Positions 3,109 through 46,886 of a stretch of 64,000 nt of DNA are shown here, in pieces. A program made the translations under genes and the position numbers. The stretch lies in sequence record SRR20825010_130; one strand, written 5' to 3'. The first letter of the stretch is position 1. Each line of letters begins with the position of its first letter. The notes below the pieces were generated by a model that was not told the origin of the DNA, did no database searches, and saw only the letters and a program-made list of their open reading frames with translations.

Positions 3109-4408
3109 AAACAATAACCGACTTTCATTTGCCTACATTCTATATGCTCTGCTCATTCTTGTGGCGGGCTATTACTTAGATCGTGCGCTGACCATTCCCT
3201 TGCTATCGTCCTTCATGTTGATGGCCGCAGCCATGATTTACATTATGCGCTGCACGCAAGAACGAGAGGCAGATTTGCCCTTTTACTGGGCCATGTTGCT
3301 TCGGCTGCTTTTGCTCTTTTCCATTCCTGGTTTGTCTGATGATGTGTACCGTTTTATTTGGGATGGCCGATTGCTGACGCAAATGGTCGATCCATATAAA
3401 GAGCTCCCTACCACATATTTAGTGCAAGGCATCGAAGGCATTAATATTGGTTTATTTGCCAAGCTTAATTCCCCCGAATATTTCTCGGTGTATCCGCCTT
3501 TCAATCAGGTGTTTTTCTTCCTGTCTGCTTTGCTTAGCCCGGGTTCAGAATTTTGGTCTATTGTTATTTTACGCGTGATCATTCTGGCCTTTGAGTTTGG
3601 AAATATTCGTTTGATCAGAAAGCTATTGCGCCATTACGGTTTGCCTGAAAGGTATGGCCTTTTCTATGCGCTTAACCCCATGGTAATTCTGGAACTCACA
3701 GGCAATTTGCATTTCGAAGCCATCATGATTTTCTTCTTGCTTTTGGCCTTGTGGAATTATGAACAGAAGAAGTTTCATCAGTCGGCCATTTGGTTTGGGC
3801 TCTCAGTAGCAACAAAGTTTTTACCGCTGATTTTCCTTCCCCTGCTGATCCGAAAAATTGGCTTTAAGAAGACCATGATCTACGGCCTTATTGTGGCTGG
3901 AGTGCTTATTATTTCTTTCCTTCCATTGATCAACACGGCTCATATTTGGGCGATAAAAGACAGTTTAGAGCTTTATTTCCAGAAATTCGAATTCAATGGC
4001 AGCATCTATTATTTAGCACGTTGGTATGGTTTTGAAACCGAGGGACACAACATCATAGCGCAATCGGGAAAATGGATGATGGCGGCTACATTTATTGGTA
4101 TTGTGTTGTATTCCCTTTTGCCGTCAAAAAAAGAACTGCCTGTACGAATGCTCTGGGTTTGGACGATCTATTTGCTCTTCGCCACCACAGTGCATCCATG
4201 GTACGCCATTCCTTTGCTGGCCATTAGTGTGTTTACCGAAAAGCGATTTGCCTTTTTATGGACACTGCTCATTTTCTTTACCTACGCCAACTACCTTGGG
4301 GGTGAATATTTTGAATGGATTGAAATCGTAATTATTGAATACAGTGTAGTTGCTATTTTTGCGATTTATGAAGCCACAGGCCGCTCATTGCAAAGGTGGT
4401 TTTTTTGA
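3101..4408 (+). CDS. Polytopic GT-C glycosyltransferase (GT87/mannosyltransferase-like)
   Basis: SDDVYRFIWDG, YPP, HPWY motifs and many TM segments; overlaps upstream stop. Confidence 0.8.
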   Translation: MPENNNRLSFAYILYALLILVAGYYLDRALTIPLLSSFMLMAAAMIYIMRCTQEREADLPFYWAMLLRLLLLFSIPGLSDDVYRFIWDGRLLTQMVDPYKELPTTYLVQGIEGINIGLFAKLNSPEYFSVYPPFNQVFFFLSALLSPGSEFWSIVILRVIILAFEFGNIRLIRKLLRHYGLPERYGLFYALNPMVILELTGNLHFEAIMIFFLLLALWNYEQKKFHQSAIWFGLSVATKFLPLIFLPLLIRKIGFKKTMIYGLIVAGVLIISFLPLINTAHIWAIKDSLELYFQKFEFNGSIYYLARWYGFETEGHNIIAQSGKWMMAATFIGIVLYSLLPSKKELPVRMLWVWTIYLLFATTVHPWYAIPLLAISVFTEKRFAFLWTLLIFFTYANYLGGEYFEWIEIVIIEYSVVAIFAIYEATGRSLQRWFF

Positions 4409-4434
4409 CGCCAAGGATTACTAAATTGGCATCA

Positions 4435-5286
4435 ATGTTCAGGCACCTTTCCCTCATTTGTGTTTTTCTTTTGCTTAGTTTCTTGGCCAAAGGTCAAGAG
4501 GGTTTTAGGGTGATTATGTCTTCTGGAAAAAACTACAAAAAGACGGAAAAGGGGTATTTTGAACTAAAAAACGGAACACCTCTGAGCAAAAAAGATCAGA
4601 TTGAAGTGCTACCCAACGGCTTGGTCATTTTGATGGATAGTGAAGGGCGGTTATTAGAAATTGAACTCGAAGGCCAGTATAATATGGCCACGCTTGATCT
4701 TACAGGGCTTTCCTCTCCTTCAGCATTGATTTATGAGGAATGGGAGAGGTTTTATAACCCAAAGCGAACCTTAGAAGCTTGGCCCCCGAACAACTACATT
4801 AAAGAACCATCGAGCTTTGTTGACCTCCACCTGAATTTCCCTTCTTCAACAGAAGTATACGGAAGGTACATTCAACTTGATTGGGCAGACATTAATGATC
4901 AATATCAAGTAAGGTTTTGGAGCGAATATGATAAGATTTTTGAAACTCACGATGTTGATTCTACTCAATTCAAGATTGACCTTCTGAGCAGTAGCTTGGC
5001 ATTTAAAGACATCTTTGGGGTGGAAGTATTTGCCAAGAACAGTAAAAGATCTACAGGAGTATATTTCTTAGATAAGCTTTCTCCGCCCGACAAAGAATTG
5101 CTCGATCAAGCTTTCCGTATTTTTCCTGATGAAGCGACTATGCTGACAGAATTGACCAAGGCCATAATGCTTGAAAATAGAGGCTTATTTGCCGATGCGG
5201 CCACGGCCTATCAAAACCTCATTAAGCAATACGGTGACTTGATGATTCCTTTCTATCAGTCTTATTTAGATCGGTTTGGATATTAA
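4435..5286 (+). CDS. Hypothetical secreted protein
   Basis: Signal peptide from ATG 4435 (MFRHLSLICVFLLLSFLAKGQ); ORF track starts at 4396. Confidence 0.7.
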   Translation: MFRHLSLICVFLLLSFLAKGQEGFRVIMSSGKNYKKTEKGYFELKNGTPLSKKDQIEVLPNGLVILMDSEGRLLEIELEGQYNMATLDLTGLSSPSALIYEEWERFYNPKRTLEAWPPNNYIKEPSSFVDLHLNFPSSTEVYGRYIQLDWADINDQYQVRFWSEYDKIFETHDVDSTQFKIDLLSSSLAFKDIFGVEVFAKNSKRSTGVYFLDKLSPPDKELLDQAFRIFPDEATMLTELTKAIMLENRGLFADAATAYQNLIKQYGDLMIPFYQSYLDRFGY

Positions 5287-5327
5287 GCTATTTTAGGGCT
5301 AAACAGGTGCTTTCGTTAATTTATACA

Positions 5328-5402
5328 GGTCTGACCTTCGGTGCCGACCTTGGAATGGCCCTTCTGTAATCGGTTGGTACCGAAGCGCAGACCGTTCCCT
5401 AA
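5328..5402. repeat. REP-like imperfect inverted repeat
   Basis: ggtctgaccttcggtgccgacc ... ggttggtaccgaagcgcagacc, about 22-bp arms, at the left edge of the accessory island. Confidence 0.5.
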
Positions 5403-5612
5403 AAGAAGATTGAGATTGCTTAACGTATTCTATAATTCATAGATGAAATTCTCTATGGAGAATTAATTCACCGAAAGCTCCGAAACATCGCACTACGCAA
5501 ATTCAATGATTTCCTTATCTCGCTTGTCCATTTCTTTAAATTATAGCTCACTCAGATAATGTTTATAGATCAAGACAGGAAGGTTTTAAGCTTGAAATGT
5601 TTTTCAGATGAG

Positions 5613-5729
5613 CTACAACGTCCAACTATCATCCCTGAGCTGGACTTTTCAAATTTCTACTAAAGTATCCGATTGCACTGGCCTTTGCAAATGCCTCAGG
5701 TTGCTCATGGATGATAGTGTTTGTTAGAT
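5613..5729 (-). repeat. attC-like recombination site (Abi cassette)
   Basis: Minus strand: ATCTAAC just after the Abi stop, arms actatcatccatgagc / gctcagggatgatagt (15/16 complementary), ending GTTGTAG. Confidence 0.85.
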
Positions 5730-5732
5730 GCT

Positions 5733-6413
5733 CTAAATGTTGTTTATCTGATCGATTTTTGTGTTAATTCCGTTGAAATATTCAGCATAAGTTGATAAAT
5801 CTGAGTCAATCCAAGAAAGCATTTCAAATATTTCATCGCGTATATCTTCAGCCTGACTAAAGTCGATGTTCGGGCCGTTGAAGCAAATAGGTTCATTGTG
5901 ATATACACGATTTCTAAATTCTCTTATCCTATTTAATTTCTGAGAGATGACGCTTCTATTTACGTTATTAGGTTTGTTCGGAAAGCAATGGATTATAACT
6001 CCTCCAATTAATCTGTAATGATGAGTTTCGAATAATGATGTCCAAAACCCAAATGATTGTTCAGATATGACCTTCCCAGAAGAAATAGCACCTCCTTTTC
6101 TTCTTATTGTTCTTTCGGCCTTTTCCACGGAATTTTTCAAAAAGAATTTTGAGTGCCTTAGTGAATTATCGTTCATAAACCCGTGTTTTTCCGAAACTAT
6201 CCAATTAGGGTTGGCAAAATGCGAGGTGATTTGGTAATTCACGGTATTCCGTATGAAAATTTCGAAAAGGTTGAGGATTGGATAAAAAGCTTGACTTACT
6301 CTGAGATTAATTCTGTAAAGTTGTTGAGCCTTAGATTTGGAATTCCCAGCGGCTATCAAAAACCTCTGGATTCTTGGTTGCGAGATAAAATATTCAAGTT
6401 TGCTGTATTCCAA
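5733..6413 (-). CDS. Abi-like (Abi_2/AbiF-AbiD family) HEPN RNase
   Basis: LFEIFIRN, SFGFWTSLF, RNRVYHNEPI (Rx4H) motifs. Confidence 0.85.
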   Translation of the reverse strand: MEYSKLEYFISQPRIQRFLIAAGNSKSKAQQLYRINLRVSQAFYPILNLFEIFIRNTVNYQITSHFANPNWIVSEKHGFMNDNSLRHSKFFLKNSVEKAERTIRRKGGAISSGKVISEQSFGFWTSLFETHHYRLIGGVIIHCFPNKPNNVNRSVISQKLNRIREFRNRVYHNEPICFNGPNIDFSQAEDIRDEIFEMLSWIDSDLSTYAEYFNGINTKIDQINNI

Positions 6414-6465
6414 ATTTTAGAGAATTAAGTAACAAAATGTAAATAGAGGTCGTATATTTACATCG

Positions 6466-6545
6466 TAATGCTTGATCAAGCCTCTTCCTTTGGAACGTAA
6501 TCAAGTTTAAGAAATCAGCCTCTGAGAAATCAGGGGCTTTTTTAT
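6466..6545 (+). ncRNA. Candidate small RNA divergent from the Abi gene (possible RNA antitoxin)
   Basis: TATATTTA -7-like motif at 6453, hairpin cttgat..ttcc-ttt-ggaa..atcaag, then terminator agcctctga-gaaa-tcaggggct-tttttt; no ORF. Confidence 0.5.
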
Positions 6546-6562
6546 TGCGTTTCTACGACTGC

Positions 6563-6693
6563 ATCTAACGTTTAGTATATGAAAAGTAGGCGATTACAAA
6601 ACTCTAAACTTTCGAGTAAGCACAAATTTTGATACGAGCCTAAAGCCTTGATTTTACTACAGTTCCGCCTATTTTTTATATACATTGTTGTGT
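6563..6693 (-). repeat. attC-like recombination site (1146-aa cassette)
   Basis: Minus strand: ACACAAC-aatgtatataaaaaataggcgg ... cgcctacttttcatatactaaac-GTTAGAT; starts 16 nt after the stop. Confidence 0.85.
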
Positions 6694-6709
6694 TTTCGTG
6701 CTTTTTTAA

Positions 6710-9700
6710 TTAGTTATTGCTCTGGAAATCAAATCCAATATCTTTAAATCGGTCGATTTTATCTTGTGACAAATTCCCTTGTTTAAAATGTCGTTTTTGG
6801 GCATTGAACCAATTGTTAAGTGATTGATAAAACTTTGTTGAAGGAACCTTAAAATGACCAAGTTCTTTATTGAAAGCATCTAGCTCTTTGAGTTTCACTT
6901 CGAAGCTTACATCTTGTGGAAACCAAATAAATTCAAGTTTTTCAAGTAGTTCAATTTTATCCTGCTTTAATATTTTATTTCTGTAGTTCTGTCTTTGTTT
7001 AAAGCACCATGTACCTAAATATGGGTTTTCGGGAAATATGACAGGAATGTTAGAGCTACCATTTTTTTCATAATGCTCTTTAAGTAAAGTATACATGTTT
7101 AACCATTGCGTTTCATTAGGATTCCAATCAAAACCTATTTCATCTAGTTTTTCAACTTGCTGTTTTGATAAACTCTCCTTAATTGCACGTTGTCTCACAA
7201 CCCATGTACCAAGGGCAACATCTTTATACTTTGTTCTTGCAGGTACATCAGTAGTTGAGTTGCTCAATTTATATTGTACTAATAAACCGTAATTCTTTAA
7301 CCACTCCTTGTAAAAATTCTCTCTTCTAGCTGCAATGCCATTATCGCCTGATATAGTTTTTGCTCTGGTTCTCTTTTTTGATTTTCTCTTCGGTTTCTCT
7401 TCTTGGGAGCTTTTTTCAAATGATGCAGGGAAACCCGATTTTACCCAGTGGTTAAACCTAGCCCATGCAATAAGTTTAGTTGAATAAACTGTTCTAGTGC
7501 CTATAGATTTTGATTCACCAAAAAAATTGGGATACATTTCCATGAATTGTGCTGACGTACATGGAGATAGTGCGTAAACATCATGCACAAATTTCACTTT
7601 ATCTAACTGCAGAGATATTGTTGAGAGCTTTTTATAAAACTCATCTTTTGTTTTTAAAGCATGAAATGATTTGCCTAATGTGGTAAGTTGAAAAATCCCC
7701 TTTTTAAGCTCAATTATTTTCAAAATCCTAAAATCACGCAGAAACTCTTTATCAGCTTCTTTTACATCTAAGCCACTTTCGATAAAAACATTAAACATGT
7801 CAAAAGAGATAAAGGGATTGCTTCTTAGAAAAATCGTTTCCTTTTCCTTATCAAAGTTCTTTAATGCTTTCCCTTTTTGAGGTTCTACTATCTTGTGGCT
7901 AATGTCCAAGTCTAAGAACTTGAGCCAGTTAGCGAAATTGTTAGAATAGGTTCTCCAAGTCTTCTCTTTATGAGAAACACTCTTAAATATTTCTTGCAGA
8001 ATCTCTGAAATTTGAGAAATTTCAATCTGCTTAGTATCTAGCTCGGTTAATTTAGAGTAGGTTGAAAATTCTAACACCTTCTGTTTAATCAAGTGTTTGA
8101 AAGTAGTTTCTGTAATTTTCAACTTATCGGGAACCATGTAGATATCCTTACCAGGAACTTTCTTTACTAATTCGAAATTCCTTAACTCGATTAGTATATT
8201 CCCCAACGTTCCTTCTCCTATTCTTTTGTCCTGATTTTCAAGTAATGTTTTAAAACTTTGCTGTCTAGACTTTCTGAACGACAAAAAGACATCCATGCAT
8301 GCCTGTGCGCCTTGTTTAAATATGTAACCCCGCCTTATTAGGGGGATTTTGCCGCTTACTATGTAGTCTCTAAAAATGTCCCAATAAACGTTGTAATTAA
8401 AGCCTGAACGAATAATTAGACGTTTGTCAATAAGTGATTTAATCTCTTTGGATAATTTGTATTCAGTTATATCATTTTCATCAAATAGATTACCAGAGGC
8501 AGCTTTATTGGCCACAAGTTCAAGTGCTTTTTGTTCTTTCTGGACAACGTTTGACAAATCTGATTCGAACAATGTCTTGATGTTAAGATTATCATCAATT
8601 AAATCTTCAATGCTTTGTCCATTTTTTATTTGCTCGAATATGTGAATGCAAAGTTTCTTAATAAGCCATGGAAAGCCCTGACTGTTTTCAATTAGTCTGT
8701 TCTTTAAATCACTGCTTAATGCAATAGAGGAGTACTCTTTTACGGATTTCTCAAGCTGTTTTAGAATTCCATTGGTCTCATTTACTCCAAATTCGGGGAC
8801 AATAAATTCTAGTGATTGTTCTTTCGCCTGCTGAAACCAACCATATGAAGGTATATCTGGCTGAATGTAAAATTCAGACTTCCATGAAAAACCAACTAAT
8901 AAGTTCGTTTTACTTTCACTAACATCAGACAGAAATTTGTAGAAGTATTTGAAGATATCAGTTTTTCTAAAAACATCTTCAAATTGGTCAAATATGATAA
9001 TTAGTAGCTTATCCGATTTTTCTAAATAGTCAAGATATGACCTAACAAAATCTGAATCTAATAAACTAAAATTAGAGGTAAATTTTATATCTGAATAATC
9101 GAGGTCTTTACTTTCTATAAAACCTGATTCAAACGTTCTTTGGATAGTTTTTTGAAAAGCTTTCGCAACAAAGTTCTCGGTAATCGCACTGCGACAATCA
9201 AAAGCCACAGTGTGAAATCGTCTATTGTAATAATTTGTTTCACATGTTCCTTTTATTGCGTTTATAAGAGAACTTTTACCCCAACCAGAATTACCTTTTA
9301 AATAAAAAGCCCTTTTGTTTGTTTCCTTAGCTCTGATGCGTCTAAAAAAATTGAACAATTCAGATTTTAGAGTGTCCCTACCTACAAAATAATTAAAATG
9401 TGCAGGTTTGTAATCAAACCAGTCATCTCCAGATTGAACTTCTGCGACTATCTCAAAATCATCGAGTCTATTTGTTTTTTCTTCAGCACCTACTATATTA
9501 TTGGTGGTTGACTTTAGCTCTAATTTTTGTACTTCGGGGATTTTAGCCAGAATAGACTCAAGCTTAGTTATATCTTTAATTGATTTTCCAGATTGGGCAT
9601 CGAATACGTAAAAATAGGTCGGATAAGCAAGACTGTCTTGTCCAATATAAACTTGATAGTCACCTAAGTATGAGATAATAAGAAATTGTTGAGTGATATC

Positions 9701-10150
9701 TCCTAAAGTTCGATAATCAATACTTTTTATTTTTCCTGAATCCTTTAATAACTCTATGACCATTTCAGGCCCATAAAATGTAACGTTTTTGAAGAGTTCG
9801 TTTATGGTGAACTCTTCATTTTTCAAACCTGACGCCTGCTTATCAAGTTCTACTGTGTGTATAAAATATGCATGGTCTGGCTTTTTTGTCAATACATTGA
9901 AACCAAAGTTTTTTATCTCGGTGGATAGTACTTTTTCCTTCGCCTTACATTCTACGTAAAGACTTTTTCTGTCATATTTGTGTTTAGCAATTAAATCAAT
10001 TTCTAAACCCGTGAATTGAACGTTTGGAGAAATCTCATATTTCTGAAGTTCTAAAACACTTCTTACCAATCTTTCGAAACAATTGCCTTTTTCAAGGCTC
10101 TCCATTCCTTTAGTCGACTTCTGCGGTATGACGATGATTTTGCTATTCAT
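6710..10150 (-). CDS. Restriction endonuclease-like + STAND P-loop NTPase + 3 helicase-associated (HA) repeats; candidate defence protein
   Basis: N-terminal EIDLIAK..VECKAK; Walker A GNSGWGKSS, Walker B IIIFDQFE; three C-terminal W..LGTW..RQR..L..IGF.W repeats. Confidence 0.8.
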   Translation of the reverse strand: MNSKIIVIPQKSTKGMESLEKGNCFERLVRSVLELQKYEISPNVQFTGLEIDLIAKHKYDRKSLYVECKAKEKVLSTEIKNFGFNVLTKKPDHAYFIHTVELDKQASGLKNEEFTINELFKNVTFYGPEMVIELLKDSGKIKSIDYRTLGDITQQFLIISYLGDYQVYIGQDSLAYPTYFYVFDAQSGKSIKDITKLESILAKIPEVQKLELKSTTNNIVGAEEKTNRLDDFEIVAEVQSGDDWFDYKPAHFNYFVGRDTLKSELFNFFRRIRAKETNKRAFYLKGNSGWGKSSLINAIKGTCETNYYNRRFHTVAFDCRSAITENFVAKAFQKTIQRTFESGFIESKDLDYSDIKFTSNFSLLDSDFVRSYLDYLEKSDKLLIIIFDQFEDVFRKTDIFKYFYKFLSDVSESKTNLLVGFSWKSEFYIQPDIPSYGWFQQAKEQSLEFIVPEFGVNETNGILKQLEKSVKEYSSIALSSDLKNRLIENSQGFPWLIKKLCIHIFEQIKNGQSIEDLIDDNLNIKTLFESDLSNVVQKEQKALELVANKAASGNLFDENDITEYKLSKEIKSLIDKRLIIRSGFNYNVYWDIFRDYIVSGKIPLIRRGYIFKQGAQACMDVFLSFRKSRQQSFKTLLENQDKRIGEGTLGNILIELRNFELVKKVPGKDIYMVPDKLKITETTFKHLIKQKVLEFSTYSKLTELDTKQIEISQISEILQEIFKSVSHKEKTWRTYSNNFANWLKFLDLDISHKIVEPQKGKALKNFDKEKETIFLRSNPFISFDMFNVFIESGLDVKEADKEFLRDFRILKIIELKKGIFQLTTLGKSFHALKTKDEFYKKLSTISLQLDKVKFVHDVYALSPCTSAQFMEMYPNFFGESKSIGTRTVYSTKLIAWARFNHWVKSGFPASFEKSSQEEKPKRKSKKRTRAKTISGDNGIAARRENFYKEWLKNYGLLVQYKLSNSTTDVPARTKYKDVALGTWVVRQRAIKESLSKQQVEKLDEIGFDWNPNETQWLNMYTLLKEHYEKNGSSNIPVIFPENPYLGTWCFKQRQNYRNKILKQDKIELLEKLEFIWFPQDVSFEVKLKELDAFNKELGHFKVPSTKFYQSLNNWFNAQKRHFKQGNLSQDKIDRFKDIGFDFQSNN

Positions 10151-10606
10151 TTCATTTTTTAATATTCAACTTCCCACAACTTAAATCCAGCTATAGGATA
10201 GGCAATTCAATTTTTCCCGAGTACACATTGATATATTATGCACAATCGTTTTTTGCATGAAACACAACGTTAGCTATCGATCACAAACGTGGCGTATAGC
10301 AATATATAATTGTTACAAAGTGAGCGTTAGCACCCCAATATGGTGTGCTATACGCACCTTTTAACAAGCAATAAGTTTAGTGAAATTAACTGATAGAACA
10401 GCAATATTTGTTGTCTATTTAGCATTTAAAAATCCACGAAGCTGCAGTTAGGCAACCTTATAAAACGCTAAATCCTTTGTGGTTATTCATCCGCAAATTT
10501 GCTTCTCTTAGGCGCTTACGCTCCGATAATCGTGAGCTGATTCGCAACGCTTGCGCCAGAGCTTTCTCGGGTGGGAGGTACAGTTCGAGCAAAAAAGTAG
10601 CAGCTA

Positions 10607-46599: not shown

Positions 46600-46639
46600 G
46601 CTATAGCCCTTCCTCAGAGGGTGGTTTAGTTGAACTTTG

Positions 46640-46815
46640 CAATGGCAGGTCTTCTGACTCTCCTAATGTATTGCGCCTTCCCATTCCGAATTTCGAAACA
46701 GTGGCAAAGTGCAGTACACTTTTTTATAGGATTACAGCAGCTGGGACTGTCCGGGATTTACACCCGATTCCCTTTTAATTCTGAAAACCGAAGCTTTCAG
46801 GAAACCCTTGCGGTA
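46640..46815 (-). promoter_or_regulatory. Cobalamin riboswitch
   Basis: Minus strand AAAAGGGAATCGGGTGTAAATCCCGGACAGTCCCAGCTGCTGTAA..GCCACTG..GGGAAGGC..AGTCAGAAGACCTGCC (B12 box); TACATTTG promoter just upstream. Confidence 0.95.
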
Positions 46816-46886
46816 GCACAAATGTAGAGAATTAAATTTTGATTGGAAGAGTATAAATAGAATTATTGATTTAGAGCCTGATACAA

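Follow-up and report, generated by a model that had tools for sequence, protein, structure and literature searches.

Integrons, such as those of class 1 or the chromosomal integron of Vibrio cholerae, consist of a promoter-proximal docking site behind which co-oriented gene cassettes are lined up. Each cassette comprises a gene and an imperfect palindrome (attC) that has ...AAC on its 5' side and GTT... on its 3' side and the same polarity relative to the open reading frame (ORF). The cassettes are joined at the GTT core, the start of a cassette complements its own end core, and the palindromes conserve structure and not sequence, with the bottom strand folding better. The same features are found on the minus strand of a 64-kb stretch of DNA (64,000 nt of sequence record SRR20825010_130, called the window below), where a docking platform and two cassettes occupy positions 5457-10432. 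We regard this region, with good confidence, as a small satellite array, part of an integron-like system by which Bacteroidota capture genes and the recombinase of which would act in trans. The window stems from the marine Bacteroidota genus Roseivirga, as identified from the GNAT gene flanking the array, which is 98% identical to that of a Roseivirga metagenome-assembled genome (locus L001), 96% to that of R. echinicomitans (L002), 95% to that of R. seohaensis (L004) and 93% to that of R. ehrenbergii (L005).

The locus differs from integrons in several respects. The attI site of integrons lies next to a divergent intI gene with the promoter Pc, whereas the attI-like site described here is found 3' of a co-directional recombinase gene in relatives. 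The R box has 7 nt in integrons, and a complementary R box of about 9-13 nt is found here. Extrahelical bases, which the IntI-specific helix reads in integrons, are not consistently present in our sites, which instead have asymmetric spacers and A.C/G.T positions. Finally, several docking platforms are present per genome. Another related system is formed by the dif modules of Acinetobacter plasmids, which are XerC/D-dependent and have short conserved dif-like cores in alternating orientation. As would be the case here, discrete gene modules lying between recombinase sites are shuffled by an Xer-type tyrosine recombinase; the sites of the present locus are instead long, covarying palindromes in one orientation, located on the chromosome and accompanied by a docking site.

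A cluster of attC sites lacking an integron integrase has been termed CALIN (Cury et al. 2016, PMC4889954). In apparent agreement with the definition in the accessible text of that paper, the array has two sites that are attC-like in architecture, about 1 kb apart (970 nt), and no recombinase in the window. The first-pass annotation of this DNA, made from the letters alone, had accordingly proposed a CALIN-like array. The absence of an integrase from the window was borne out, but the array opens at a docking site that resembles attI and is part of a conserved platform; the definition as given there requires neither. For the Bacteroidetes, the accessible text of the IntegronFinder 2.0 paper (PMC9024848) mentions earlier finds of In0 only (integrases without cassettes) and later one complete integron, in Salinibacter ruber. 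The corresponding texts of PMC9668308, PMC8618304 and bioRxiv 2024.07.02.601686 mention Bacteroidota only in passing. Literature searches, with supplementary files outside their scope, returned no description of the system reported here.

Architecture of the array

Read on the minus strand, the array begins with a platform element in the 350 bp that separate the GNAT gene from cassette 1; a stretch of about 170 nt of it is conserved. The platform core (10307-10432, minus strand; positions 175-300 of the search query) is a dispersed repeat located upstream of attI-like sites, with 19 copies, three to four per genome, in five related Roseivirga genomes (G001-G005); all genome-wide statements in this work refer to relatives. 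When the window was aligned with 18 copies, many columns were invariant, and the AACGTT at the junction was retained in 11 of the 19 rows. The attI-like site itself (10266-10300, minus strand) shows a palindrome at 10294-10278, followed by ATAGCTAAC and the junction between C and GTT at 10269/10268. Window positions 10312-10257 are 77% identical to the site directly 3' of the recombinase gene in G001 (locus L089, 8246-8302). Over the 19 copies the junction palindrome is 83% paired, with compensatory changes in four of six pairs. Conservation is very strong in its upstream 100 nt, which might conceivably hold a promoter or arm sites for a recombinase. A scan for sigma-70-type promoters performed at chance level (19 matches versus 18.2) and no promoter could be assigned. 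RNAalifold gave no consensus fold of the platform, and the Rfam search returned no family there.

Cassette 1 (6570-10268, minus strand) is composed of the start core GTTGTGTTTCATGC at 10268-10255, a 118-nt leader, the ORF at 10150-6710 (1146 aa) and attC-like site 1 (6561-6701, minus strand). The latter has its AAC at 6689-6687, at the end of the core GCACGAAAACACAAC (6701-6687), its GTT at 6569-6567, an 18-bp basal stem and spacers of 3 and 5 nt. Cassette 2 (5620-6569, minus strand) follows with the start core GTTAGATGC at 6569-6561, a leader, the ORF at 6413-5733 and attC-like site 2 (5608-5735, minus strand), with AAC at 5725-5723 as part of the end core GCATCTAAC (5731-5723), GTT at 5619-5617 and spacers of 4 and 5 nt. 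The order after each stop codon is thus the same in both units: ...AAC and a spacer of 3-4 nt, the two stem arms on either side of a loop, then a spacer of 5 nt and GTT. Behind the last GTT lies a non-coding tail (5457-5616, minus strand), which is present in full in L001 and from 5555 only in a sister species (L006, same slot), and which is absent from L002, L004 and L005; it is possibly the remnant of a further cassette.

The positions of the four core strings, the placement of the end cores directly after the stop codons (stops at 6710 and 5733) and the closure of both imperfect palindromes at the next GTT, with core-to-core distances of 131 and 117 nt, had been given in the first-pass annotation and were all recovered. 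It had also noted cores that depart from the integron consensus GTTRRRY/RYYYAAC, and here the array is mixed: ACACAAC and GTTGTAG deviate, and ATCTAAC and GTTAGAT conform.

A structure scan that required AAC, then a stem with a net count of 12 or more matches, then GTT detected both window sites and none in 20 kb of other window sequence or, at the same threshold, in a shuffle; when the threshold was lowered to a score of 18, the background was 3 sites per 20 kb in shuffles. In a cruder scan of the whole 64 kb, stem extensions of at least 7 were seen at these two sites only. Hairpin 2 is clearly stable, with z scores of −3.3 and −2.8 relative to shuffles, and in hairpin 1 the basal 18-bp stem alone stands out. 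T-run terminator tails were absent from the gene strand of both hairpins. The wider family of attC-like sites ranges from 44 to 190 nt in length. BLAST relatives of site 1 have 78-81% identity in G002 and G005 and 71% in G003, and an 83%-identical relative of site 2 terminates a different cassette at another locus in G003 (L094). Over 5500-10500 the GC content is 32-35%, compared to 40-45% in the flanks.

Some further elements were noted in and around the array. A strong terminator-like hairpin with a T-run is located at 6517-6538 on the plus strand, that is, opposite to the genes, in the leader of cassette 2. It moves with the cassette in L001 and could stop antisense transcription from the convergent gene at 4396-5286. 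A REP-like inverted repeat lies just outside the array (5326-5393); at L001 14898-14995 about 96 extra bases are present, with a 22-nt segment duplicated. The window contains no tRNA gene, and the sole Rfam family at gathering score is a cobalamin riboswitch (46627-46824, minus strand, 101.8 bits), unrelated to the array.

Exchange of cassettes between strains

The locus was compared with its relatives by blastn and the junctions were then read base by base in the window, L001, L002 and L004. In L001 the match to the window extends to 10250; then come 2177 bp of other DNA, and from 6570 onwards the two sequences are again alike, at 98.5% identity. Cassette 2 is present in L001 at this identity, starting exactly at 6570/6569, and it is absent from L002, L004 and L005. 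L002 and L004 lack cassette 2 and contain one different unit each (1955 and 755 bp), closed by relatives of hairpin 1 with 78% and 70% identity. At base level, the window, L001, L002 and L004 are alike up to ...CGATAGCTAACGTTG (all loci agree to ...CTAACGTTG) and diverge afterwards. At the other joint, the end of the L001 insert, ...GGCG, immediately precedes TTAGATGC at window position 6569.

Contigs from public runs break at the same places. A contig of run X7 joins 6570 to 10263 via 2190 other letters. In the sediment metagenome X3 a contig covers 7229-10269 with 66 differences (about 98% DNA identity) and continues with unlike sequence past 10269, and contigs of X2 and X3 part from the window at 6565. 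That strain polymorphisms would break at the GTT cores, as the first-pass annotation had it, is thus seen in L001, L002 and L004 as well as in the X7 and X3 contigs. Its further expectation that homologues keep the flanks agrees with a TARA ocean scaffold (L097), on which unrelated sequence surrounds a copy of cassette 1 that encodes a 75%-identical protein, retains both the start core and the end core and carries an attC-like hairpin. This unit starts with GTTGTGTTTCAT... and ends with ...ACGAAAACACAAC AAT, followed by a different, shorter stem and TAAAC GTT; the gene behind it is a different one and encodes an AIPR/AbiU-type protein. Related sites, also anticipated, are found beside a tyrosine recombinase gene in the nearest relative and at other loci. 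Read across these assemblies, the comparison shows cassettes that have been gained, lost and swapped as whole units, with the joints inside the common (C)GTT core.

R. ehrenbergii (L005) has neither the cassettes nor the 350 bp upstream that hold the platform. The boundaries of the insertion could not be read exactly from its empty site, where small repeats similar to the REP-like one crowd the flank, among them a 44-nt segment that is 100% identical to L002 but inverted. An invertible segment was considered as well and rejected, given that the flanking repeats are inverted, yet the variation consists of replacement and not of inversion.

Two observations concern platform and site copies elsewhere. 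In the sister species, L006 11267-14434 carries two tandem platform copies in the same slot, one heading a DUF6088/AbiEii pair and the other a GIY-YIG gene; its last unit ends with the 5' half alone of an attC-like site, directly followed by position 5555 of the window. In X3 the summed contig depth over 6462-6815, the region of attC-like site 1, reaches 86-139 compared to about 7 over the gene, and comes from many short contigs. The sequence of the hairpin 1 type is therefore repeated in that sediment metagenome and common to many units.

Circle signature, covariation and strand asymmetry

Eleven cassettes from the window and related loci were used to compare starts and ends. In nine of them, complementarity between the start and the cassette's own end core reaches 4-7 nt past GTT/AAC, the criterion being a minimum of 4 nt, and the sequence involved differs per cassette. 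The own-end run had a mean length of 5.1 nt, compared to 1.1 nt in 110 non-own pairings, and the observed sum was reached in none of 100,000 permutations. Seven further cassettes with this signature were recognized by eye in loci L108-L115. Such complementarity is the expected mark of a unit that was once circular and closed at that core.

In an alignment of 11 sites, 81% of the stem cells were paired, as opposed to 27-39% when the partner columns were slid, and compensatory changes occurred in 13 of 18 stem pairs. The attC-like sites thus conserve structure, not sequence. Two stem positions carry conserved A.C mismatches on the gene strand (6 and 7 sites); on the other strand these are G.T pairs. 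The bottom strand folds at lower energy in nine of 12 sites, with one tie and with site 2 of the window as an exception, and in each of the 19 sites observed, some of them read by eye, the 3' spacer exceeds the 5' spacer in length. The extrahelical bases that the first-pass annotation had suggested looking for did not materialize: the window stems contain mismatches and no bulges, and the family has none that are consistent, a 1-nt bulge being seen by eye in site L089c.

The recombinase linked to related sites

Searches of the five related genomes with the integron integrase model TIGR02249 gave no match above its cut-off. The best partial match in these relatives is an ORF of 352-354 aa in G001 and G002. 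In G001 (L089) this gene is followed by the attI-like site and then by three cassettes, with hairpins of the same family and starts that match their own ends. G002 shows the same layout with a different first gene. In both, the recombinase gene has the attI-like site at its 3' end and points in the same direction as the cassettes; in G003, an attI-like site follows a fragment of the gene. A homologue at E≤1e-60 was detected in 120 of 401 sampled Bacteroidota genomes. Gene, docking site and a cassette with the own-end signature were found together within the 1.5 kb fetched at six of the nine best foreign loci; at L107, L111 and L114 that interval contained no such site at the scan threshold.

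The 352-aa enzyme contains the Pfam domains PF13495 and PF00589. Among the NCBIfam models NF040815 scored highest (224 bits, cut-off 220), followed by TIGR02249 (209.6, cut-off 265), XerD (184.6) and XerC (174.8). Model positions 181-240 of TIGR02249 are skipped. The best solved relative is VchIntIA of V. cholerae (PDB 2a3v), but it aligns in two stretches that leave residues 215-245 unmatched, a gap in which the IntI-specific helix is presumably located. The first-pass annotation had pointed to an IntI-like recombinase with the IntI-specific segment, and in this respect it has to be revised: the linked enzyme stays below the integrase cut-off, the segment has no counterpart, and an N-terminal extension of 80 aa is present. 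Archaeal XerA (PDB 5hxy and 4a8e), in contrast, aligns end to end with the recombinase over the catalytic and SAM-like domains, and NF040815 is the top match. XerA resolves chromosome dimers at dif, whereas the gene described here is accessory, lies beside variable cassettes and is decayed or was not found in three of the five relatives. Directly upstream of the G001 recombinase gene (L089 6456-6890) we noted an IS200-like ORF of 144 aa together with REP-like palindromes, which are not there in G002.

Cargo genes

The first cargo gene (6710-10150, minus strand) encodes a protein of 1146 aa with a restriction endonuclease-like N-terminus, an nSTAND1/AAA_16 NTPase domain and three HA domains according to Pfam. 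At the N-terminus the match is a weak one to PF18741 (E 0.0018); the precomputed domains of homologues are Mrr_cat and nSTAND1. Its closest named relative is an 83%-identical protein of Algibacter, a member of the Flavobacteriaceae and thus of another order. When 201 sampled genomes from the order of the window's organism were searched for the protein, none gave a match at E≤1e-20, and PADLOC did not match it either. The second cargo gene (5733-6413, minus strand, TTG start) encodes an Abi_2-type protein of 226 aa, which matches PADLOC PD-T4-5 with an E-value of 4.7e-14 (residues 2-196) and weakly AbiD (E 1.5e-4); the Pfam Abi_2 score of 22.1 bits is below the cut-off of 25.6.

Behind other platforms, the cargo includes GmrSD, PLD-like, PDC-S06, PDC-S42, Mrr-NACHT, GIY-YIG and AbiEi/AbiEii proteins. 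SDR plus AraC, MORN and DUF4386 proteins and many proteins without a family are found there as well, and in sister species the same slot as in the window also holds non-defence genes (SDR plus AraC in L002). PADLOC matched six of 12 cargo proteins at E≤1e-5, a fraction that is biased in that the 12 were chosen from about 29 Pfam-scanned proteins mostly for their suggestive domains. The two genes of the window are plausible candidates for anti-phage genes.

Discussion

The comparison of related loci makes the cassette logic of the array evident. What we infer on top of it is the enzyme, its action on a folded strand and the role of the cargo in defence. In the mechanism that we propose, the platform would end in an attI-like site behind which the two co-oriented cassettes dock, and a tyrosine recombinase related to XerA and IntI, encoded elsewhere in the genome, would recombine the cassettes in trans. 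In relatives, the gene for this enzyme immediately precedes the same attI-like site, with attC sites of the same family behind it. The enzyme would act on the folded strand of the palindrome, and the choice of strand would follow from the asymmetric spacers and from G.T wobble pairs that form on the bottom strand only.

Several observations weigh against this proposal. The window contains no homologue of the recombinase, and the enzyme is linked to the array solely through its position next to related sites in other genomes. Its gene is interrupted by a stop codon in G004 and reduced to a fragment in G003, both of which keep platform copies; G005 keeps platform copies as well, and the TIGR02249 search listed no comparably scoring match there. 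With platforms retained in G003, G004 and G005 while the recombinase gene is decayed or not listed, the arrays may be fossils. Neither an excision product nor a circle nor a recombination event was observed, the runs compared being contigs throughout, and we infer recombination of a folded strand from covariation. Over its full length, hairpin 1 is AT-rich, and its folding energy does not set it apart from shuffled sequence (z +0.97 and +0.41). The own-end complementarity is missing in two of the 11 cassettes, namely the L001 insert and the first unit of L095, and the units in L006 have no attC-like site or half of one only. Finally, the position of the crossover is resolved no further than to the shared CGTT(R).

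The same data were weighed against other origins of the array. An ordinary variable defence island, with palindromes that are terminators or chance repeats and content that differs by homologous recombination or deletion, would fit the dip in GC content, the varied content of what is evidently a hotspot and the unremarkable stability of hairpin 1. It is scarcely credible, however, in view of breaks that coincide with the cores in five independent comparisons, the recurrence of the same cassette with the same cores in the unrelated context of L097, the outcome of the permutations (0 of 100,000), the covarying stems and the lack of T-run tails on the gene strand. Architecture and AAC/GTT cores, with the pair GTTAGAT/ATCTAAC fitting the consensus exactly, match the attC logic of an ordinary CALIN of a canonical integron, for which a true IntI would be supplied by another part of the genome or by a visiting element and the XerA/IntI-like gene of relatives would be a bystander. 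The TIGR02249 searches, moreover, covered the relatives and not the window's own genome. We nevertheless consider such a CALIN very unlikely. None of the five relatives exceeds the TIGR02249 cut-off, the sites are without consistent extrahelical bases, and the attI-like site and attC family directly follow the non-canonical recombinase in G001, in G002 and at six of nine foreign loci. IntegronFinder surveys also find almost no integrons in the phylum, as stated in the accessible text of PMC9024848.

Different machinery with a use for hairpins or short core sites is the remaining alternative, either an IS200/IS605-type (HUH) single-strand transposase or the housekeeping XerC/D pair acting on dif-like sites as on the Acinetobacter plasmids. 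The IS200-like ORF and the REP-like palindromes just upstream of the G001 recombinase would be in line with the former and the two Xer-like genes per related genome with the latter. The IS200-like gene, however, is not at the same place in G002, and the sites are long and variable in sequence with stems that covary, unlike conserved 28-bp dif-like cores. Co-orientation, own-end complementarity and a dedicated docking site by one recombinase family phylum-wide fit a dedicated system instead, and we judge other machinery to be very unlikely. We therefore retain the satellite array of an integron-like gene-capture system as our reading of the region.

Surveys of integrons depend on the IntI-specific domain and on one attC model. 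The locus described here obeys the cassette logic of integrons at base-level resolution, and the enzyme linked to its sites is without the IntI-specific domain. If this enzyme is confirmed, cassette recombination would not need the IntI helix, a second solution to strand choice would become accessible to experiment, and Bacteroidota of sea and soil would harbour a large reservoir of mobile cassettes that has so far gone unseen, with many anti-phage genes among them. The dispersed platforms, in addition, might help to predict the places at which such genomes take up new genes. The broader proposal is that of a distributed integron in Bacteroidota, in which one XerA/IntI-like recombinase without the IntI-specific helix would serve several platforms scattered over the chromosome, the sites would be read by spacer asymmetry and wobble pairs in place of extrahelical bases, and mainly anti-phage cassettes would be traded across orders. 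We see the chances of this proposal as evenly balanced. If it is true, integron-type gene capture would be older and more plastic than the IntI lineage, and common in a phylum that is listed as nearly integron-free.

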